From the NCBI GenBank assembly GCA_965261085.1, contig OZ253442.1:4000001-4064000 (forward strand): a stretch of DNA of 64,000 nt, in the 5' to 3' direction. The translations under genes were made by a program, and so were the position numbers. The notes beneath the pieces were generated by a model. That model worked only from the letters and a program-made list of their open reading frames with translations. It did no database searches and had not been told where the DNA came from. Numbering within the stretch: the stretch's first letter is position 1; each line of letters opens with the position of its first letter. Of this stretch, positions 23,894 to 33,643 are shown piece by piece. The stretch is from a bacterium (GTDB lineage: Bacteria; UBA8248).

Positions 23894-25114
23894 CTAGGCG
23901 AGGTATTTTTCTGAATTTTTCAGGAACTCGACCACGGCCTGAGCGAAAACGCTCACGCCTACCGGCAGCGCCTCCTCATCCAGGTCGAACAGATCGGAAT
24001 GCAGCCCGTGCACAAAGCCTTTTGCTTCGTTCGATATGCCCACGCGGTACAAGGCGCCGGGCCGTTTCTCCGCCATGTAGGAGAAATCCTCGGCCCCCAT
24101 CGAAAGTGGCATCTCTTTTACGTTCTCTGCGCCGAGAACCTGAACGCCGGCATTTTCGATGAGCTCAGTAGCCGCCTTGTGGTTCACAAGAGCGGGATAT
24201 CCCGGCGTGATATCGAGGTCGATTCGCACGTCGAAGGCTTCGGCCACCCCACGCGCTACCGCCCGCGCGCGCTCGGCTATCTTCACCCTGACCTTCGGAT
24301 CATGCGTGCGGATAGTTCCCTGAATCTTGACGTCGCGCGGCACGATGTTGACAGCGACGCCGGCTTCGAACGTCGTAATGGAAAGAACACCGGACTCGAA
24401 GGGGCCGAGGTTTCTGCTCACGATGCTTTGCAGTGCGGTCACCAGATGGCAGGCCGCCAGCAGGGCGTCCTTGGATTGGTGGGGATACGCCGCGTGCGAA
24501 CTTTCGCCCCTGACGTGAATGAGAAGTTTATCCCCCGCCGCCAGGACGGGACCCGAGCGTGTGCCGATATGGCCCGCCGGCATGTCGGGCCACACGTGCG
24601 CGGCGATGAGGAGATCCACCCGCGGCTCCTCGAGAACGCCTTCTTCCACCATCCTCTTTCCACCGGCCTTTCCCTCCTCCGCCGGTTGAAAGATGAATTT
24701 GACATTGCCGCCCAGGCCCTCAAGCCAACTCTTGTTCTCGGAAAGCAGGCGCGCCGCGCCCAGCAACATGCTCACATGGGCGTCATGACCACAGGCGTGC
24801 ATTTTCCCCGGACGGCGGCTCTTGTAGGGCACGTCGTTCGACTCGTCGATGGAGAGCGCATCCATATCAGCGCGAATGCCGATGGTGGGGCCGGGACGTC
24901 CCGTCTCGAGCAGACCGATCACCCCTGTTTCCGCGATACCGGCATGTGCATCAAGACCGAAACTCTCGAGATTCTCTACGATGAGGCGGGAAGTATCATG
25001 CTCCTCGTAGCCGAGTTCGGGATTCATATGAATGGTGCGCCTGGTTTCTGAAAGCCATGGCAGCAGGGCCAAAGAGGCATCCCGTATCGATTCAGACATA
25101 TCGTCAGACCTCAT
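23894..25114 (-). CDS. M20 family amidohydrolase
   Basis: HMNPELGYEE, RADMDAL, MHACGHDAH, FQPAEEG, GAEDF. Confidence 0.92.
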   Translation of the reverse strand: MRSDDMSESIRDASLALLPWLSETRRTIHMNPELGYEEHDTSRLIVENLESFGLDAHAGIAETGVIGLLETGRPGPTIGIRADMDALSIDESNDVPYKSRRPGKMHACGHDAHVSMLLGAARLLSENKSWLEGLGGNVKFIFQPAEEGKAGGKRMVEEGVLEEPRVDLLIAAHVWPDMPAGHIGTRSGPVLAAGDKLLIHVRGESSHAAYPHQSKDALLAACHLVTALQSIVSRNLGPFESGVLSITTFEAGVAVNIVPRDVKIQGTIRTHDPKVRVKIAERARAVARGVAEAFDVRIDLDITPGYPALVNHKAATELIENAGVQVLGAENVKEMPLSMGAEDFSYMAEKRPGALYRVGISNEAKGFVHGLHSDLFDLDEEALPVGVSVFAQAVVEFLKNSEKYLA

Positions 25115-25292
25115 GAATTCGCTTCACCCATCATGCCCTGTCAGTACGCTGAACCCGCATCAAGGGAGAACGGAAAACTTTTTTTTGAAATTCTTCAATG
25201 AAGGCTAGATATCACAAACAAAGGAGATAAACCATTTGGTTAACCGGTTCTCGGCTTCTCACTGTGTCGATATGCCACCCCATCCCCAACAA

Positions 25293-26969
25293 TCAAAAAT
25301 CATTCGGCGAGAATCCGGGCCGCCCCCTCAATATCGCCTTGATGTCCTCACGCTTGTGTTTGCGCGTGGTGGTTCTGGGTAATTCCTCCTCGGGCCAGAG
25401 GAAAAACCCGGCCACCCTCTTGTAATCCGCAAGGTGCGTGCTCAAGCGCTTGAGTTCGGAATCGGCCAGGGCCGCGCGCTTCTGCTCTTCTTGTGGAAGA
25501 TCAGCTTCGGGGTCTAGCACCACGACGGCGAACACCTCCTCACCGCCGCGAGACGTCTTCCTGCCGATGACGCATACGTCCTGAAACCACTCACTCTCGA
25601 GAAGCTGCTCCTCCACCTCTTCGGGATATATGTTTTTTCCCGCCTCGGAGATAATAACGTTTTTGGATCGGCCGCATATCGTGAGGTAGCCGTCCGCATC
25701 CAGACGACCAATATCCCCGGTATGAAACCACCCATCGCGCAAAACCTCCACCGTCAACTCCGGGTTTTCAAAATAGCCCTGCATCACGTTCGGCCCGCGT
25801 ATCAGGATTTCGCCCTCTCCTTCGCCCGCTCCCTCCACGGGTTCGATCCGAGCCTCGACCCCCGGAATCGGCGGGCCGACTGTTCCGATTCTGTTCGGAG
25901 TTCCCGACGGATTTGCGTGGGTGACGGGAGAGGTTTCCGTCAACCCATATCCCTGAAGCACCTCGATCCCCAAAACGAGCAAATCACGAGCGATTTTCGG
26001 GTCGAGTGCGGCTCCCCCGCTCGCGAAATAGCGTAAATTCTCGCCGAGATTCTTCTTCACCTGAGATAACAACAAACCCCCGACGCGAAAACCCATGGAC
26101 AGGCAAATCCCGGAAATACCGAAAAGGAACTTAAAAACGATTTTCTTCGCCCCGCTCAGCGATTCCACGTTCGACATGATCCGCTTATGGATGAGCCGCG
26201 CAAGTGCCGGCACCATCAGGCAGATGGTGATGCCCTCTTTTTTCATGGTCTCCGCGAGGAGGCGCGGGTTCAGAGAAGATAGGTAGTGCACGCGGGCGCC
26301 GGCCGCTAACGGAACCAGAAAACCTCCCGTGCTCTCGAACATGTGGTGAAGCGGCAGAATCGAGAGAAAACCATCGCCCTCCCCGGCGTCGAACGGCTCG
26401 AGCACGGCGCGCACATTGGAGGTGATGTTCCCGTGAGAGAGCATCACTCCTTTGGGCGTTCCCGTCGTTCCCGATGAGAACGACACCAGCGCCAAATCGT
26501 CCGGGCTTCGCTCCGCGCCCGGCAGCGCGTCCAGCGAAGCAGAGGGAGTGGGCTCTCTCACCTCATCAATGCGCAACACCGCGCAGACCGACGCGAGATC
26601 GCCCGCAAGCGTTCCGGCGCGCTCCTCTTCCCGAGCGTCCGTCATCAGGCAAACGGGCCTGGCTTTTTCCAGAATGTTCGCGATCTCCCCTTCTTTCAGG
26701 TTCACGTCCAACGGCACGAGAACGCCACCGGCGAGAAGCGCCCCGAAATAACCCACCCCCCATTCGGGTTGATTCGGAGCCAGCAACGCGACGAAATCTC
26801 CCGGCTTCACGCCTGAATCCATCAGTTCACGGGCCAAGGCGGCCGCTTTGCCGCATAGTTCTATTCTCGTGAGCACCACCCGTCCACGTCCTTCCACATC
26901 GCCTTCTAGGGCGATCGAGTCTGGAAATTTCGCGGTTGCTTCTTTCAGGATATTAATCAGCGTATCCAT
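25293..26969 (-). CDS. Long-chain acyl-CoA synthetase (AMP-binding)
   Basis: SSGTTGTPKG, QGYGLTE, FHTGDIG, GKNIYPEE. Confidence 0.9.
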   Translation of the reverse strand: MDTLINILKEATAKFPDSIALEGDVEGRGRVVLTRIELCGKAAALARELMDSGVKPGDFVALLAPNQPEWGVGYFGALLAGGVLVPLDVNLKEGEIANILEKARPVCLMTDAREEERAGTLAGDLASVCAVLRIDEVREPTPSASLDALPGAERSPDDLALVSFSSGTTGTPKGVMLSHGNITSNVRAVLEPFDAGEGDGFLSILPLHHMFESTGGFLVPLAAGARVHYLSSLNPRLLAETMKKEGITICLMVPALARLIHKRIMSNVESLSGAKKIVFKFLFGISGICLSMGFRVGGLLLSQVKKNLGENLRYFASGGAALDPKIARDLLVLGIEVLQGYGLTETSPVTHANPSGTPNRIGTVGPPIPGVEARIEPVEGAGEGEGEILIRGPNVMQGYFENPELTVEVLRDGWFHTGDIGRLDADGYLTICGRSKNVIISEAGKNIYPEEVEEQLLESEWFQDVCVIGRKTSRGGEEVFAVVVLDPEADLPQEEQKRAALADSELKRLSTHLADYKRVAGFFLWPEEELPRTTTRKHKREDIKAILRGRPGFSPNDF

Positions 26970-27055: not shown

Positions 27056-27847
27056 CTATATCAAGCGTTTCCTGACTTGCCATGCGGCGAACTCTCCCGC
27101 GAAAACCAGGGCGATGATGGCCAGCACCAGCACACCTGATTTTTGCCACTGAAACTGCTTCACATACAAAAACACGTAAAACCCCAGGCCTCCCGCACCG
27201 ACAAGGCCCAAAATCGTGGAATCACGCAGATTCATCTCGAAACGTATGGCCAGATGCGCGACCATCTGAGGCAGAACCTGTGGAATTAGGCCGTGTTGGA
27301 TAACCTGAACGGACGAGGCGCCAGTACCCTGCAATGCGAGCAGGGGTTTCGGATCGGTCGCCTCGATTTCCTCAGCCACGAACCGGCCGAGGACCCCGAC
27401 GGAGTGCACCGCCAGCGCCAACACGCCGGGAAAGGGGCCGAGTCCCACGGCAGAGACGAACAACAATGCGAGAAGTAGCAAAGGGATGGAGCGGACGAAC
27501 GCCATCAGCGCCTTGATGGGCAAATGCACCCAAACCGGCGTCCAGTTCGACGCTGCCAGCACGCCCAGTGGATAGGCGAACAGGGCGCCCAGAAAAGTGC
27601 CCGCGATGGTGGTTTGCAGCGTTTCGATCGCCGAGGTCAGCAAAACATCCCAGACCGACCAGTCCGGCGGCGTCATCCGGCCAAAGAAATGAATCAACTG
27701 GGGAATACCGCGCCAGAATTGCTTGAGTGAAAACTCAGAACCTTGAAAGGACCAGAATAAGAGTGCGCTAACCGCCAGGAAGAGGCTGGCCCTGGTAGCC
27801 ATACGCCCAGGTGGAAGCGCTTCTGCTTGCTCTCGCTCCGTTCTCAT
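27056..27847 (-). CDS. phnE: Phosphonate/phosphite-type ABC transporter permease
   Basis: RMTPPDW, RSIP, GLGPFPG, RFEMNLRDSTILGLVGAGGLG; the start may be 27802. Confidence 0.88.
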   Translation of the reverse strand: MRTEREQAEALPPGRMATRASLFLAVSALLFWSFQGSEFSLKQFWRGIPQLIHFFGRMTPPDWSVWDVLLTSAIETLQTTIAGTFLGALFAYPLGVLAASNWTPVWVHLPIKALMAFVRSIPLLLLALLFVSAVGLGPFPGVLALAVHSVGVLGRFVAEEIEATDPKPLLALQGTGASSVQVIQHGLIPQVLPQMVAHLAIRFEMNLRDSTILGLVGAGGLGFYVFLYVKQFQWQKSGVLVLAIIALVFAGEFAAWQVRKRLI

Positions 27848-28613
27848 TCACGACTCCGTTCGTTCCCATGAATTCGTAGATTTCATATATCTTATCATTC
27901 GAGAGAGAATCCGAAGAACCATCCCACATGATTTTTCCGTCTTTCATCGCGAGAATCCTATCCGCATACTTTCGTGCAAGTTCAGAAATATGTAGGCTCA
28001 TCATGAGCGTCAGTTGATAGGCGTCGCAAACCGATACGAGAAGATCCATGATATCTTCGGCCAACGCGGGGTCCAGGCTCGATACGGGTTCATCGGCCAG
28101 GAAAATCGCCGGCTCCTGCGCCAATGCCCGGGCAATGGCCACGCGCTGTTGCTCCCCGCCGGAGAGCGTGCGGGCAAAGCGGCGTTGCTTGTCGTCGAGA
28201 TGCACTTCGTGAATGGCCTGTGCGCAGATTTGCAAATCACGCTCCGAGCAGATCCCCAACATGCTTTTCAGCAAAGACACATAACCAAGCCTTCCGTGAT
28301 AGACGTTTTGCCAAACGGTCTCCCGGCCTATCAGGTCGAAATGCTGATGAATCATGCCGATATGCCGGTGATGGGATTTCATCTTTTGCGTCTCCTTGAT
28401 GGGAAAAATATCCCCCATCACGACCACTTGACCCTCATTGCAAGACACATAGCCCTTGAGCATCCGCATCAGGGTCGTCTTGCCGGAACCACTGTTGCCG
28501 ATGATGGCCACTCTCTCTCCACGAAAGATGTCGAGATGATCGATGGAAAGAATCGTCCGTCCCCCCATCTCCACGCGTGCATCTTCGATTTGGATGACCA
28601 CTTCTTTCGACAT
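27768..28613 (-). CDS. phnC: Phosphonate/phosphite-type ABC transporter ATPase
   Basis: [41 protein letters not shown]. Confidence 0.88.
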
Positions 28614-28617
28614 TTCC

Positions 28618-29541
28618 CTACTCCTTCAAAAAGCCATACTTTCGAGCCATATCGGCCACCGATCGATAACTGCTGTGGTCGACCCTGATGTAACCTTCCG
28701 TTCCGTAAAGAGCCCGCAGCAACCCGCGATTCTCGGGCCGGTTCATCTTCATCATCGCCGAAATGAACTTTTGCTTAATGTCAGGCTCCAGACCTCTGCG
28801 AACCACCACGTTGTGGCTGGGAATTCTGGCCGACTGCGCAATGGCGATAATTTTGCCCCGCTGCTCGGGGCGGAGAAGATTGAGAGCGTATTGGCTGACG
28901 CCGGCGGCATCGACGAAGCCGCCGAACATCGAGTTGATCGCCTGTTGATCTCCACCGGCGAAATATACTCTTCGGAAAAACCCGCCCTCTGGTTTTCCCA
29001 CTCCCCCATTCACGAGGCCGGAACGAACAAAAATATCGTGGGGATACATGAAGCCAGAACTCGAAATGGGGTCGACATAAGCGATGGTTTTGCCCTTCAG
29101 ATCGGAGAGCTTTTTGATGCCGCTGTCCTTACGAACGAAAATCCTCGAATAATAATAGGATTTTCCGTCGTATATCTCTCCGAGAACCGCCTCGACCCCC
29201 GAATACTTGTTCGCCAGTACATAGGGCAGCGGAGACATGAAGCTCACATCCGTATTTTTCGAGATCATGGCCTCCACTGCGGCCAAGTAGTTCAAGGTAA
29301 TGAAATAGCGAACCTTGCGCCCCATTTCTTTTTCCAGGAAGTTCATCGCCGGCTTCACGTTGCTGATGAGTTTCTCGGGATTCTCGAGCGGAATGAACGC
29401 GACCCGAAGTTCTCCATCGACCGCCCGGGCAGGAGCCGAAGCAAACAAAAACATGGAGAAGGCGAGGAGAACCGCTCCCGGGAAACCGACACCCGGCGCT
29501 TTCGACAATAATTTGCGTATGAAATGCATGGCGTTGTTCAT
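28618..29541 (-). CDS. phnD: PhnD-family substrate-binding protein
   Basis: Signal peptide, NYLAAVEAM, YYSRIFVRKDS, DPISSSGFMYP. Confidence 0.85.
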   Translation of the reverse strand: MNNAMHFIRKLLSKAPGVGFPGAVLLAFSMFLFASAPARAVDGELRVAFIPLENPEKLISNVKPAMNFLEKEMGRKVRYFITLNYLAAVEAMISKNTDVSFMSPLPYVLANKYSGVEAVLGEIYDGKSYYYSRIFVRKDSGIKKLSDLKGKTIAYVDPISSSGFMYPHDIFVRSGLVNGGVGKPEGGFFRRVYFAGGDQQAINSMFGGFVDAAGVSQYALNLLRPEQRGKIIAIAQSARIPSHNVVVRRGLEPDIKQKFISAMMKMNRPENRGLLRALYGTEGYIRVDHSSYRSVADMARKYGFLKE

Positions 29542-31499
29542 TTGAGTTTATCCACATTTTTCTCATAAAGCGCGTGATAATCCGCTATTTTGCTGTCAGT
29601 CATCTCCACGTCGCCGGCAAGGTGAGCGCTCAAGGCTTCGCTTAATTTTTTCTCCATATCATGGAGAATCGGCAGATTTCCCTTGTCTTGAACATCCCAC
29701 TTATGGGCCTGCACTTCGCGCACTACTGTTTTCAACAAGACGGTGATCAGTTCTTTCTTCTTTCTCTGCTTCAAACGCTCATATGTGGAGAGGAAAAACT
29801 TGAATTCCTCCAGTTCCGAATCCAATGTGTAAACCGTATCTTCAATGCCCTGGACGCCATCGCCCACGGCCTCCACATAATTAGTGAGGTCGTCGATACT
29901 CTTTCGGCTGAGCCCAAGCCCGAACTGCCTGTTGAACCATTCGCTCACCGCCCGCAGGGTAGGCAGGCTGCCATTATGAAAATAAGGGGCCGAGAATTTC
30001 GATGAGAGCAGAGTGGGCGTGTCCAGGCCGCCCACGTGGAAGGGCTGGTTCCCTGCTCCCGTGGAGCCGATGTTATGGCGTTTGTGGTCCACGAAGTTCG
30101 CGTTTGGTATGTGGCAACTCGCACAACTCATGCCGCCCATCATCTGCGGAAATTTCCGGTGAAATATCTTCTCGCCCCGAAGCGCCGCTTTGGAAACCTT
30201 CTCGGGGTCGAGTCTTCCGCTTTTTTTCAGTTTCGGGTTCGGCAAGAACTCGAACTCGTTCATATAGGCGATCATCCCGTCCATAATCATCGGGTCGGGT
30301 TCTGGCCCATTGAACTCATTCACGATGACGTTGCGAACGAATTCCCTGAGCGAGGCGAAACGCCCGTTCCGGCCGTAGGGGGCCGTGAAGCGAATCCCCC
30401 GCAAGTCGGGTGTGTCCAGCGGATCGTGCAAGCCGTTGTTGGCGTGGCCGGCGAAGAAACTGTTCGACACGTCCATTCCGCCTTTTTCCCTGGAAAGTCC
30501 CGGGATGAAGAGCTTGGGATTCGTCACCCCCTTGTTGTGGCAAGTGTTGCAACTGACCCCCAAGCTGCGCGCGGGCTCCCCGAATATCTCCGGGCTGTCG
30601 AAAGCCATATCCCCCAAAGCGATGAGAAAGGTTTCCGCCTCGTTCGCTCCACGCACCGCCATTCCGAGAATCTGGCGGGGACGGGGGAGTTGCTTGTTGA
30701 TGTTGGCGCCGGGCGGCAGGCGCCACGGCACTCTAGCCGTTTTGAGGTATGTTTCGCTCGTCTTCGGGCGCGGCAGAAGCCTGTACCACTTCCCGGCCCG
30801 GAACCCGGAAAAATTCGAGTAGAAATAACGGCGGATGAAAGCGGTATTCTCACGAATTTTCTCCAGATTCATCGGCCTTGCGCCGATACCCATCACGCCG
30901 GCCGCCCCGAGGTGGGAATTCGCTTCCAGCCAATGGATTTGCATCTTTTTCCACCCTTTCGGGTCCAGATGCGGCAAGGTCTCGGCAAAGGCCAGAAAAA
31001 CTCTTCGCGCTTCATTTAGATGGTTTTTCACCTCAGATCTCTTTGATCCCGGCTTGATCCGATCTATGCGAGAAATCAGCAACAAAGTGACTCCCCGTGT
31101 CGCCAGGGAAAAGACCAAACGCCTCCCGTTTCGCCGCGCGGCGACCATGTCCGGCTCTTCATCGCCTCTCGCCAAGGGGTGGGCCACACGTCTTCCGGTA
31201 ACCAACTCCTCCGAGAACTTCCTCGCGCCAAGAGGGTCCACAACTTTTAGCGCTTCCTCGATACGCTTCAAATCGAGCCAGACCTGTGGCCAGAACACGG
31301 GATTCAGATTCAAGATGAAACTGGCGCGACGATAACTTTCGGCAACGGGGTGTAATTCTTCGGGGGGGACGATGTGCGCCGAAGCCGGACTGAAATTCAT
31401 CATCAGCAACCCGGCGGCAAGAAGCCACGTCGACATCGCTAAGGAATTTTTCACACGCAGAGCAAGCCTCGCCCCGGGCGTTTTGAGGCCGCATATCAT
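29538..31499 (-). CDS. Exported di-heme cytochrome c peroxidase/MauG-superfamily protein with an N-terminal extension
   Basis: Two CXXCH motifs (CNTCH, CASCH), DTP.L...APY..NG repeated after each heme, Sec-type signal ending ASA-H. Confidence 0.8.
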   Translation of the reverse strand: MICGLKTPGARLALRVKNSLAMSTWLLAAGLLMMNFSPASAHIVPPEELHPVAESYRRASFILNLNPVFWPQVWLDLKRIEEALKVVDPLGARKFSEELVTGRRVAHPLARGDEEPDMVAARRNGRRLVFSLATRGVTLLLISRIDRIKPGSKRSEVKNHLNEARRVFLAFAETLPHLDPKGWKKMQIHWLEANSHLGAAGVMGIGARPMNLEKIRENTAFIRRYFYSNFSGFRAGKWYRLLPRPKTSETYLKTARVPWRLPPGANINKQLPRPRQILGMAVRGANEAETFLIALGDMAFDSPEIFGEPARSLGVSCNTCHNKGVTNPKLFIPGLSREKGGMDVSNSFFAGHANNGLHDPLDTPDLRGIRFTAPYGRNGRFASLREFVRNVIVNEFNGPEPDPMIMDGMIAYMNEFEFLPNPKLKKSGRLDPEKVSKAALRGEKIFHRKFPQMMGGMSCASCHIPNANFVDHKRHNIGSTGAGNQPFHVGGLDTPTLLSSKFSAPYFHNGSLPTLRAVSEWFNRQFGLGLSRKSIDDLTNYVEAVGDGVQGIEDTVYTLDSELEEFKFFLSTYERLKQRKKKELITVLLKTVVREVQAHKWDVQDKGNLPILHDMEKKLSEALSAHLAGDVEMTDSKIADYHALYEKNVDKLK

Positions 31500-31540
31500 C
31501 TTTTCTGTCTCTCCGCAGCAGAAACCATATCAGACAAGAA

Positions 31541-31570
31541 ATTGTATTTCTATCTAAGAAATAAAGTCAA
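31541..31570 (-). promoter_or_regulatory. Sigma70-type promoter with an inverted repeat in the spacer
   Basis: Minus strand TTGACT-N18-TACAAT; TATTTCT-N5-AGAAATA palindrome at 31545-31563. Confidence 0.6.
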
Positions 31571-31698
31571 CCCGTATTGAATAAATTTTCAGGCATATCT
31601 AAATTTAAAAAGAACACCAATATCAATATAAACAAACGCTTCAGGCAGTTTATTGAAAATAACGCATCAAAATTGGGATATTTTAGAGATTCGAGCAC

Positions 31699-31727
31699 AA
31701 AAAACCGGCCCTGAAACAGGACCGGTT
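31699..31727 (-). terminator. Intrinsic terminator after amtB-glnK
   Basis: Minus strand ACCGGTCCTG-TTT-CAGGGCCGGT followed by a T-run. Confidence 0.75.
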
Positions 31728-31852
31728 CTTTGAAAGTGTGAGGTTTCGTTTTTCTAGGAATCGAACTGAAGCCGGGTTCGGAATACTATAAAGTCTCCAA
31801 ACCTATCGTCCCCGCTCCACCATTCAAACGATTCCGCTACGAAACAGATTGC

Positions 31853-32191
31853 CTAGATGGCGCCATCGCCTCTATCTCCAGTGCGTATGCGCACACAATC
31901 TTCCACCGCCTGGACGAATATTTTTCCGTCCCCTATCTGCCCTGAATTCGCCGCATCACAAATCGCCGTGACGATGGCGTCAGCGTTCTCGTCTTGCGTC
32001 AAGATTTCCACCTTGATCTTCGGCAGGAAATCGACCACGTACTCGCTGCCGCGATAAAGTTCGGTGTGGCCCTTTTGACGGCCGAACCCCTTCACTTCGC
32101 TCACCGTCATGCCCGTCACACCGGCATCTCCCAGTGCTTCCTTCACACTTTCCAGCTTAAATGGCTTGATAATCGCCGTGACTAAACGCAT
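31853..32191 (-). CDS. glnK: P-II nitrogen regulatory protein
   Basis: IIKPFKL, GFGRQKGHTELYRGSEY, GDGKIFV; adjacent to amtB. Confidence 0.95.
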   Translation of the reverse strand: MRLVTAIIKPFKLESVKEALGDAGVTGMTVSEVKGFGRQKGHTELYRGSEYVVDFLPKIKVEILTQDENADAIVTAICDAANSGQIGDGKIFVQAVEDCVRIRTGDRGDGAI

Positions 32192-32251
32192 TGTTCATTC
32201 CTCTCAAGATAACAGATGGATTCATTCGGTATAAATCCCTTCACGTCTGAA

Positions 32252-33643
32252 TCAACCCAACCTCTCGCCCGCGTAGGCCTCCATACCGTGCTCTGAGATG
32301 TCGAGACCAGCCGATTCATCCTCGGCGGAAACGCGCACACCCATCACGGCTTTCACCGCTTGCCAAAGGATGAAGGATAAGACGAAAGTGAAGACACCGA
32401 CCGCGATAACACCCGTAAGTTGTTTGATGAAGAGCCCAGCACCTCCGCCATAGAACAAACCGACGACTCCCTTGTCAATGGAAGGTGCGGCGAATAAACC
32501 GAGCGCCAGCGTGCCGAAGATGCCGCATACCAAGTGAACCGAAACGGCACCGACCGGATCGTCTATCTTGATCTTGTCGAGGAACGGAACCGCAACACAG
32601 ACGATGACGCCCGCGGCCAGACCAATAATCACCGCCCCCAGCGGAGTAACATTGGCGCATGGCGCCGTGATGGCGACCAGACCCGCGAGCGCGCCGTTCA
32701 CGCTCATGGAAAGATCGGCCTTGCCGAACATGACCCGCGACGTAAGGCTCGAAGCCACGACGCCCGCCGAAGCGGCGAGGTTCGTCGTTACGGCGATGCG
32801 CGCGATGGCGCCTGCGTCGGCGGCCATGGTGCTGCCCGGGTTAAACCCGAACCATCCGAGCCATAAGATGAATCCGCCCAATGTGACGAGCGGCATGTTG
32901 TGGCCGGGAATCGGTTGCATGCGGCCATCGGACGTATACTTCCCGAGCCGGGGACCGAGAACGATGATTCCGGCGAGCCCCGCCCAGCCTCCAACAGAGT
33001 GGACCACGGTCGAACCGGCGAAATCGAGAAAACCCATTCCTCCCAACCAGCCGCCACCCCAAATCCAGTGGCCCTGGATGGGATAAATAATGGCGACGAG
33101 GAGGAAGCTGAAGATCATGAACGAGGAGAACTTGATGCGCTCGGCCACACAGCCAGAAACGATGGTCGCTGCCGTCGCCGCAAAAACGAGCTGGAAGAAA
33201 AATTTTGCATATAACGGCACGCCCGTCCAATTAAGGGATGAGAAAACGCCCTTGTACGCATCACCCGTGGCCGGGCTGTTGTCCACCCCAGACAGGAGAA
33301 ACCCATTCGTTCCGAATATCGAACTGCCGTCACCGAACATGAGGGCGAAGCCCAATATCCAAAACGCCAGGGACGAGACCGCTACGACACCGAAATTCTT
33401 ATAGAGAATGGCGACGGTGTTCTTCGCGCGACAAAGCCCCGATTCGAGCATCGCGAAACCCGCGTGCATAAAAAACACCAGAAAACCAGCCACCATTACC
33501 CAAACAGTGTCCGCCGCGACTTGTAAATTCGCGAGGCTCTTGGCCATGGCCTTGACATCCTGCGCCCAGCCGCTGCCGGCGAAAGATAAAACCCCCATGG
33601 CGAAGACCAACGTTGCCGTAATGTAGAGATTCCTTCTTCTCAT
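32252..33643 (-). CDS. amtB: Ammonium transporter
   Basis: FMHAGFAMLE, DFAGSTVVH, GWFGFN, IDDPVGAVSVH. Confidence 0.96.
   Translation of the reverse strand: MRRRNLYITATLVFAMGVLSFAGSGWAQDVKAMAKSLANLQVAADTVWVMVAGFLVFFMHAGFAMLESGLCRAKNTVAILYKNFGVVAVSSLAFWILGFALMFGDGSSIFGTNGFLLSGVDNSPATGDAYKGVFSSLNWTGVPLYAKFFFQLVFAATAATIVSGCVAERIKFSSFMIFSFLLVAIIYPIQGHWIWGGGWLGGMGFLDFAGSTVVHSVGGWAGLAGIIVLGPRLGKYTSDGRMQPIPGHNMPLVTLGGFILWLGWFGFNPGSTMAADAGAIARIAVTTNLAASAGVVASSLTSRVMFGKADLSMSVNGALAGLVAITAPCANVTPLGAVIIGLAAGVIVCVAVPFLDKIKIDDPVGAVSVHLVCGIFGTLALGLFAAPSIDKGVVGLFYGGGAGLFIKQLTGVIAVGVFTFVLSFILWQAVKAVMGVRVSAEDESAGLDISEHGMEAYAGERLG

Follow-up and report, generated by a model that had tools for sequence, protein, structure and literature searches.

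Uptake of metals that depends on a change of redox state is known from EfeUOB/FepABC and from the Fet3-Ftr1 system of yeast. A cassette of four genes that may be a further variant of such redox-assisted metal uptake is described here. It lies in a 64,000-nt stretch of DNA (the window; positions 4,000,001 to 4,064,000 of contig OZ253442.1, assembly GCA_965261085.1) from a bacterium of the GTDB lineage UBA8248, the source genome being a single contig of 4.27 Mb that is 96% complete. The cassette encodes an exported c-type di-haem enzyme and an ATP-binding cassette (ABC) importer consisting of a PhnD/PtxB-family binding protein, a PhnC-like ATPase and a PhnE-type permease. The reading favoured here, which we put at an even chance of being right, is that this is a metal-repressed cassette for the acquisition of manganese or iron, where capture and import of the metal are preceded by a redox change that the di-haem enzyme brings about. 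The logic would be that of EfeUOB/FepABC and Fet3-Ftr1, with the redox change first and import second.

The likeness to EfeUOB/FepABC would extend to a periplasmic haem peroxidase encoded with, and presumed to act alongside, a metal importer and a helical periplasmic metal-handling protein in a metal-regulated operon, as these systems are outlined in the Efe background of PMC3143127. The cassette differs in that its enzyme is of the c-type di-haem kind and not a DyP peroxidase, in that its importer is a PhnCDE-type ABC system and not an Ftr1-type permease, and in that its helical domains are fused to the enzyme, the match to the EfeO/imelysin fold being insignificant (Foldseek E 1.0-1.9). Pairs of imelysin-like and DUF1111 di-haem peroxidase proteins have been reported from iron-regulated operons, together with rare fusions of the two (PMC3143127, in the part consulted). 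Such pairs resemble the present case in combining a di-haem c-type peroxidase-like protein with an all-helical protein of two four-helix bundles in a metal-uptake context, but neither DUF1111 nor Peptidase_M75 gave a Pfam match in the haem protein at E 0.01 or better, and no ABC importer belongs to those systems as far as they are described in that part of the source. The PtxABC, PhnCDE and HtxBCDE importers share with the cassette the binding-protein fold family with its hinge Tyr and Ser motif, the permease and ATPase families and the gene order D-C-E (PMC5700983, likewise in the part consulted). The cassette departs from them in the pocket positions D16, H155 and the capping Tyr, which are changed, in having no adjacent ptxD, htxA or phn catabolic partner, in the di-haem gene that stands in front, and in the MntR-type regulators that are attached to it in other genomes. 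To MauG, MbnH and the bacterial cytochrome c peroxidases (bCcPs) the enzyme is related by its two c-type haems, by a weak but real sequence similarity and by its fold, whereas it is about twice as long, carries extra helical domains at both its N- and C-termini and appears to have its haem domains in the opposite order. Ferric binders of the FbpA/transferrin type have the class II binding-protein fold and a pocket of Tyr, His and carboxylate residues with an anion site at a helix N-terminus. The cassette's binding protein has the same class of fold, and its Tyr, His and carboxylate residues and retained anion site, a ligand set suggested by conservation, are similar, but it is a PhnD-family protein, and an Fbp/Fut-type system is encoded separately in the genome. 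No description of a haem enzyme paired with phnDCE was found in the literature, coverage being of sources other than subscription journals and supplementary files.

Anatomy and conservation of the cassette

The four open reading frames (ORFs) of the cassette, like the motifs, promoter, palindrome and terminator located below, all lie on the minus strand of the window. The first encodes the di-haem enzyme (653 aa, 29538..31499) and is followed by the genes for the periplasmic binding protein (307 aa, 28618..29541), the ATPase (281 aa, 27768..28613) and the permease (263 aa as called, 27056..27847). The sequence bears out the arrangement given in a preliminary description of this DNA, namely a gene with two CXXCH motifs whose stop overlaps the start of phnD by the letters ATGA (29538-29541), with phnC and phnE following tightly. 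The spacing between phnD and phnC is 4 nt, and the phnC and phnE ORFs overlap by 80 nt (27768-27847) when the latter is called from its first start codon, an overlap that is also seen in the closely related loci described below. Since the PhnE profile match begins only at residue 17, the true start of phnE is probably internal to the called ORF. The cassette is flanked by glnK and amtB upstream and by genes for an AMP-binding enzyme and an M20 peptidase downstream, so that the absence of adjacent phosphorus-catabolic genes that had been remarked upon earlier holds; none for phosphonate or phosphite adjoins the cassette, PtxD and HtxA not having been searched for genome-wide.

The conservation of this arrangement was assessed in a sample, limited to one genome per species, of 54 loci with a relative of the haem protein at 44-96% identity, of which 26 are close to the window (L001-L026) and 28 are more distant (to L054). 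Their record titles name Nitrospinota, Planctomycetota, Acidobacteriota (Terriglobia and Thermoanaerobaculia), Hydrogenedentota, Oligoflexia, Sumerlaeota and others, making at least six named phyla. Searches by tblastn with the window's four proteins showed the haem gene to be followed immediately by phnD-C-E at 50 of the 54 loci, with gene order and strand unchanged. Three contigs end too early, L035 inside phnD and L053 and L054 inside the haem gene, and the linkage is thus present in 50 of the 51 loci that have any DNA downstream of the haem gene. The sole readable exception is a shorter, 529-aa haem-protein paralogue from Planctomycetota (L050:7881-9763), which has no phnD-C-E; a 98-aa ORF comes next to it and then a 1521-aa gene on the opposite strand. 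The pairing with phnDCE that had been proposed from the window alone is therefore a general one, homologues in other phyla being linked to the importer genes and not scattered without them.

Clustering of the ORFs over all 54 loci showed that only the four cassette genes are common to all clades, and it is for this reason that they are regarded as a unit. The next real gene cluster, that of the AMP-binding enzyme, is represented at 26 loci, all of them within L001-L028 and L028 included. In most of L001-L026 the cassette is flanked by the M20 peptidase, the AMP-binding enzyme and amtB-glnK, which in the window occupy 23894-26969 and 31853-33643. Each flanking gene is kept in 22-26 of the close loci and not in other phyla, and the cassette therefore seems to have been inserted between unrelated conserved genes. 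The haem gene is carried by 31 of the 51 genomes sampled from the window's phylum, and at least 942 relatives of its product were returned by one search, where they are called 'hypothetical protein', 'cytochrome C' or 'cytochrome c peroxidase'. The cassette is widespread in uncultured Nitrospinota, Acidobacteriota, Planctomycetota, Hydrogenedentota and others.

MntR-type regulators and a candidate operator

The genes surrounding the cassette were surveyed with Pfam for 131 flanking ORFs of 20 diverse loci and by tblastn over all 54 loci. A gene for a DtxR-family repressor is the immediate neighbour of the cassette at 12 of the 28 distant loci and at no close locus among the 26, the hosts named for the 12 being Planctomycetota, Terriglobia, Hydrogenedentota, Oligoflexia, Acidobacteriota and Thermoanaerobaculia. 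The regulator gene comes first, with the cassette behind it on one strand, in L027, L028, L032, L037, L038, L042 and L054, is divergent from it in L031, L034 and L053, and follows phnE in L033 and L043. The best solved relatives of these regulators are members of the DtxR/MntR family, in which, according to the part of PMC10317159 consulted, the iron-responsive IdeR/DtxR proteins have Met10 and Cys102 and the manganese-responsive MntR proteins have Asp or Asn and Glu at these positions; the same source states that most Gram-negative bacteria use DtxR-family regulators for manganese only. The Met10 position is occupied by Asp in eight of the cassette-adjacent regulators, by Asn in two and by Gln in one, that of L037 being unreadable there, and the Cys102 position by Glu in 11 and by Cys in one. 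The MntR-type signature is accordingly present in 10 of the 11 regulators that are readable at both positions, which favours manganese. No Pho regulator and no phosphorus-catabolic gene was listed by Pfam among the 131 flanking ORFs of the 20 loci. Of the 28 distant loci, 11 have a gene for an outer-membrane barrel of family PF13557 next to the cassette (four detected by Pfam and seven by tblastn, one of them weak and one partial). At L034 a FeoB gene is next to the regulator gene, and a 16/19 match to the IdeR consensus occurs between the regulator and haem genes.

The window genome has an MntR-type regulator of its own, a three-domain protein with the Asp/Glu pair encoded at G000:C1:1595296-1595964, which is not adjacent to the cassette. 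The best match of this regulator is encoded by the gene adjoining the haem gene in G002 and G004, and in G003 by one that is roughly 1 kb from it; these three genomes belong to a different class of the window's phylum.

A palindrome of the type TTTAG-N6-CTAAA was found by pattern at a fixed distance upstream of the cassette in the window and in 23 of the 26 close loci, and in the remaining three (L019, L023 and L025) it was found by weight matrix. The 18-nt copy in the window (31587..31604), which was recovered by both pattern and matrix and in which one arm is degenerate, lies directly upstream of the -35 box of the putative promoter. When the matrix was run against the whole genome the window site scored 26.4 bits versus 16.3 for the next best and is therefore unique. 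In L027, L028, L042 and L054, loci in which the regulator heads the cassette, the same matrix matched at 16.9-21.8 bits in the stretch of about 65 nt ahead of the regulator gene, and only two other matches above 16 bits were obtained in the approximately 0.5 Mb scanned (loci L019-L054). The palindrome is thus a candidate for the operator that would tie the window cassette to the MntR-type regulator. No regulon beyond the cassette was found with the operator matrix, the 16.3- and 15.5-bit sites of the genome being not evidently associated with metal genes: the third-ranking site, at 15.5 bits, is near a gene with a histidine-kinase-like ATPase domain. The second-ranking site (G000:C1:2828543, L058) is between a divergent gene for a family-5 (Opp/Nik-type) binding protein and the genes for its permeases.

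Other clades have palindromes of their own. Within the 170 nt that precede the haem gene, the Thermoanaerobaculia-type loci L043-L047 and L052 have a different, 16-nt palindrome of the type TTTTGAGTAYTCAAAA immediately past the -10 box, and L033 and L040 have TTAAC-N4-GTTAA; either may serve as the operator of some other regulator. Downstream in L044, L047 and L052 are genes for an ArsR-type protein, a methyltransferase and a DUF6526 protein.

The binding pocket and the di-haem enzyme

By family assignment the transporter belongs with those for phosphorus compounds. The binding protein matches Phosphonate-bd (PF12974) with E 2e-54 and exceeds the cut-off of TIGR01098 (175.9 bits, cut-off 112), although it falls short of the PhnD equivalog TIGR03431 (173.6 versus 261.1 bits); the permease exceeds its equivalog cut-off (TIGR01097, 266 versus 217 bits) and the ATPase does not (TIGR02315, 237 versus 266 bits). 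Among proteins of solved structure PtxB is the nearest relative of the binding protein (E 8e-27; profile E 6.5e-39), further ones being two cyanobacterial phosphite binders, the arsenate sensor ArrX, HtxB, PhnD of E. coli and AioX, and the genome has no strong PhnD-family locus other than the cassette. Phosphite binders contact their ligand through D16, Y94, S124-T125-S126, H155 and a capping Tyr, the last conferring specificity for phosphite by a P-H...pi contact, according to the part of PMC5700983 consulted. Conservation at these positions was judged over 25 members of the cassette's binding-protein family. Y94 of PtxB corresponds to Tyr130 of the window protein, which is invariant, and the S-T-S motif to Ser160-162, of which Ser162 is invariant. 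D16 is replaced by Leu52, at a position that is variable in the family, H155 by an invariant Gly197 and the capping Tyr by an invariant His243, so that three of the five contact positions are changed, and Glu122 and Tyr124, which are not found in PtxB, are invariant. On account of these losses and gains the pocket, as read from the alignment, is not a canonical phosphite or phosphonate pocket. A Glu, two Tyr and a His beside a retained anion site recall, at the level of conserved residues, the ferric-binding proteins and transferrin; melanotransferrin is a weak profile match of the binding protein (E 7e-7).

The parentage of the transporter nevertheless makes it necessary to consider that the di-haem enzyme oxidises a reduced phosphorus compound or another oxyanion (phosphite, hypophosphite, phosphonate or arsenite) in the periplasm and that the PhnDCE-type system imports the product. 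This is unlikely in our estimation, but it is the alternative that survives best. The scores over the cut-offs of TIGR01098 and TIGR01097, in a transporter family for phosphate, phosphite and phosphonate, and the position of PtxB as nearest solved relative speak for it, as does the retention of the hinge Tyr and the Ser motif, which hold phosphorus oxygens; the exchange of the capping Tyr for His243 and of His for Gly197 could make room for a fourth oxygen. A cluster of six invariant Arg residues beside haem 1 of the enzyme would also be in keeping with an oxyanion. Neither PhnJ of the C-P lyase nor any PhnX (phosphonatase) over its cut-off was found in the genome, so a periplasmic step would be needed. 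Set against this are the three changed contacts, which include the very Tyr that gives phosphite specificity, and the attached regulators, which are of the DtxR/MntR-type in 12 of the 28 distant loci with no Pho regulator among the flanking ORFs. Two PstS-type phosphate binders are encoded elsewhere in the genome, so that an importer for product phosphate would be redundant, and we know of no haem enzyme that oxidises phosphite. The cargo placed first in the preliminary description, a reduced phosphorus compound, is thus disfavoured by the substitution of Leu, Gly and His for D16, H155 and the capping Tyr and by regulators that are not Pho-type, whilst the option it had listed last, a metal complex, is the best fit to a context of metal-sensor regulators. 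Were the phosphorus reading to be true instead, the cassette would represent the first periplasmic haem-dependent step in the use of reduced phosphorus.

The enzyme itself is a member of the CCP/MauG superfamily but, to judge by the profiles, of no narrower family. The CCP_MauG profile (PF03150; 45.6 bits versus a cut-off of 25.6) is matched by residues 442-517 only, over profile positions 7-76 of 149; Pfam also reports RoxA-like cytochrome c. None of the full-length family models comes near its cut-off (MauG TIGR03791, 32 versus 444 bits; MbnH TIGR04039, 47 versus 363; CytoC_perox NF040606, 21.5 versus 150; RoxC NF051462, 16 versus 900). A signal peptide spans approximately residues 1-41 and ends in AxA, and His42, the next residue, is likely to be the mature N-terminus. 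There follow an all-helical N-terminal domain (approximately 45-235), the di-haem core (approximately 280-550) and a C-terminal four-helix bundle (554-653). The first CXXCH haem-binding motif (C317-H321, 30537..30551) and the second (C459-H463, 30111..30125), which is in the segment matching the CCP_MauG profile, are invariant in an alignment of 45 relatives with a mean column identity of 58%, and so is the Arg cluster that follows motif 1 (R367, R370, R377, R380, R385 and R389). His42 (31374-31376) precedes the motif IVPPE-x-LH, and of the same 45 sequences at least 90% keep His42 and His50, Glu47 being invariant; the three residues may form an N-terminal metal site. A 'histidine brace' at His42 was left as a side idea, the position being Asp in some of the relatives.

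Matches to solved structures are all weak (E 3e-8 to 1e-3). The closest by sequence is 9qdt, a probable cytochrome c peroxidase chain that is titled YhjA in the Foldseek listing, and others are 6e1c, a MauG-like copper-homeostasis protein (E 3.8e-6), bCcPs, MauG (E ~3e-4) and the gamma subunit of hydrazine synthase. Residues 335-417 align with the C-terminal part of MauG and residues 436-516 with the N-terminal haem domain of the peroxidases, and the order of the haem domains thus appears to be swapped relative to MauG and the bCcPs. The AlphaFold model has a predicted local distance difference test score (pLDDT) of 76.7; its N-terminal helical domain is confident and its core loops are poorly modelled, the haem loops at residues 353-380 and 462-510 falling below 50. 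Hallmarks of a bCcP, besides peroxidase activity, are a His/Met-ligated electron-transfer haem, a Ca site and an inter-haem Trp. A fold search with the whole model gave only weak matches, headed by hydrazine synthase gamma (Foldseek E 7e-3) and then bCcP, with SoxA also present. The C-terminal bundle retrieved generic four-helix bundles at Z 12-13, as is expected for helical bundles. When modelled alone the N-terminal domain forms two helical bundles (pLDDT 91.9), the best Z of which is 7.4 (catenin/vinculin), with EfeO and Algp7 appearing only in the insignificant range given above; the imelysin fold is marked by a pair of four-helix bundles and an HxxE motif. Neighbours in the ESM Atlas are confined to 'cytochrome c peroxidase' clusters of similar length.

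It might also be supposed that the enzyme is a MauG- or MbnH-like modifier, a maturation factor that oxidises a side chain of the binding protein to build the ligand site, perhaps for a metal. In NCBIfam it is indeed the MbnH family that matches best (E 1.6e-12), with a MauG-like family next and MauG after it, and 6e1c and MauG are among the solved relatives. The strict one-to-one pairing and the start-stop overlap with the binding-protein gene resemble mbnP-mbnH, which is an enzyme-substrate gene pair, and the proposal is compatible with the metal-sensor context. It is considered improbable, more so than oxidation of an oxyanion, when the family scores are so far under their cut-offs and when no Trp, the residue acted on by MauG and MbnH, is invariant in the binding protein among the 25 family members. 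A catalyst, moreover, would not need stoichiometric co-translation with its substrate, and two large helical domains would be left unexplained. Least probable of all, and very much so, is a plain periplasmic peroxidase that is co-regulated with the importer as a stress module and not coupled to it chemically. In its favour are the place of the haem protein in the CCP/MauG superfamily, the physiological link between manganese import and peroxide defence, and the likeness to streptococcal Mn-ABC operons, in which a thiol peroxidase is encoded. Against it, three canonical CCP/MauG genes lie elsewhere in the genome, so that this is not the housekeeping peroxidase; enzyme and importer genes stay together, overlapping or closely spaced, at 50 of 51 readable loci from a range of phyla; the protein is about twice the size of a bCcP with extra domains that are highly conserved, and the canonical peroxidase profiles match a 70-residue stretch only.

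Proposed metal acquisition, its difficulties, and further features of the locus

What still best frames the locus is the self-contained and undescribed module of a periplasmic redox enzyme with an importer that had been envisaged at the outset, and we infer a metal as the cargo, together with the identity of that metal, the direction of the redox change and a contact between enzyme and binding protein. On the metal-acquisition reading the cassette would be repressed by an MntR-type (DtxR-family) regulator when metal is plentiful. The exported enzyme, a very divergent member of the bCcP/MauG superfamily with two extra helical domains, would act on metal in the periplasm, the likeliest reaction, because of its ancestry, being a peroxide-driven one-electron oxidation of Mn(II) or Fe(II). 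What the enzyme makes would then be captured by the PhnD-derived protein, whose pocket no longer has the residues specific for phosphite but has acquired an invariant Glu, Tyr and His, and in which the hinge Tyr and some of the Ser motif that binds anions are retained; the PhnC/PhnE transporter would carry the product inwards. The barrel and regulator genes that are attached to the cassette in many phyla would be part of the same arrangement. The regulator signature points to manganese; a trivalent ion, be it Fe(III) or Mn(III), is favoured by the Tyr/His/Glu pocket and by the fact that a redox step would be needed, and the two might be reconciled if the enzyme worked in the manner of manganese peroxidase.

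The inventory of the genome is pertinent here. Neither Nramp nor ZIP is present in it, and FeoB_N yields only weak matches at the level of a GTPase. The sole ZnuA-type binding-protein gene is divergent from the sole Fur-family gene (G000:C1:996322-997885), the two being probably Zur-ZnuA or Mur-MntA, and the metal that this pair serves bears on the manganese argument. An MntR-type sensor in a genome with no recognisable manganese importer, taken with a unique operator match at the cassette, makes a manganese role fit, although the argument is a soft one, and in the window genome the cassette may be the missing manganese importer. A second DtxR-family regulator, of two domains and with His and Cys at the Met10 and Cys102 positions, directly precedes an Fbp/Fut-type ferric ABC system at G000:C1:2659853-2664517 (L057:5853-10517), which consists of an SBP_bac_6 binding protein, a 564-aa double permease and an ATPase; the genome seems to have separate DtxR-family sensors for iron and for the cassette.

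A number of observations weigh against acquisition of a metal, or against one or other choice of metal. Nramp is rare in the phylum as a whole, occurring in two of the 51 genomes, both of which are without the cassette, and the argument from a missing importer is weak for that reason. Uptake of Mn(II) elsewhere needs no redox step, and the manganese reading leaves the role of the haem enzyme unexplained; Fe(III) would be a better fit to the Tyr/His/Glu pocket, but the regulators resemble those for Mn, that of L033 excepted, which has Gln/Cys at the metal positions. The invariant Arg cluster beside haem 1 would suit an anionic substrate. No regulator is adjacent in 16 of the 28 distant loci or in any of the 26 close ones, and adjacency is in any case no proof of regulation. 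An orthologue of the regulator occurs in 48 of the 51 genomes of the phylum sample, with or without the cassette, which 31 of them carry, and the phylogenetic profile of the regulator is uninformative as a result. The transporter parts still score as phosphonate-type, the permease being over its equivalog cut-off, and the ligands of the binding protein's closest solved relatives are phosphite, phosphonate, arsenate and arsenite. To our knowledge no PhnD-family binding protein binds a metal cation. No significant match to the EfeO/imelysin fold or to any other metal-handling fold was obtained in the fold searches with the N-terminal domain.

A bolder form of the proposal, which is tentative and on balance doubtful, is that the cassette represents a new class of redox-coupled ABC metal importer extending over at least six phyla, in which a MauG-like enzyme, having helical metal-handling domains of its own, uses peroxide to oxidise Mn(II) or Fe(II), and the trivalent ion is then passed on with a synergistic anion of the phosphate type to a binder that evolved from one for phosphite or phosphonate. 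If that were true, the evolutionary route of the binder would parallel the one proposed for transferrin and FbpA, and the cassette would contain a PhnD-family protein that binds metal and a haem c metallo-oxidase whose coupling to an ABC importer is obligate, each the first of its kind. It would be a third architecture of redox-dependent metal uptake beside Fet3-Ftr1 and EfeUOB and a natural example of an anion-binding protein re-tooled for a cation. A further consequence of the metal reading, if true, is that the cassette will have been miscounted as phosphonate or phosphite uptake in surveys of marine and soil metagenomes, its genes being now annotated as 'cytochrome c peroxidase' and 'phosphonate ABC transporter'. 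On either the metal or the phosphorus reading the four genes, with a defined candidate regulator and operator, offer a clean testable target.

Parts of all four genes are covered by metatranscriptome contigs of 95-100% identity from four runs in two studies, and these bridge the phnD-phnC and phnC-phnE junctions, carry-over of DNA being possible; none covers 31425-32300, where the intergenic region and glnK are, or bridges the haem-phnD junction, and since contigs of this sort cannot show absence, strand, level or transcript ends they do not bear on whether haem gene and phnD are co-transcribed. The earlier statements that the cassette has its own near-consensus promoter and is insulated by the glnK terminator are both upheld. 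The intrinsic terminator of glnK (31698..31732), which separates the cassette from amtB-glnK, is a hairpin of -24.7 kcal/mol (z -5.6, with none of 200 shuffles as good) followed by a U run. The sigma-70-like promoter TTGACT-18-TACAAT (31541..31570) agrees with the consensus at 10 of 12 positions, a match that by itself is weak evidence because six such sites were found by scanning the region versus 3.3 expected; its TTGACT box is kept in related upstream regions. The spacer between the -35 and -10 boxes is filled by an inverted repeat, TATTTCT-N5-AGAAATA (31545-31563), which is only partly kept in related promoters.

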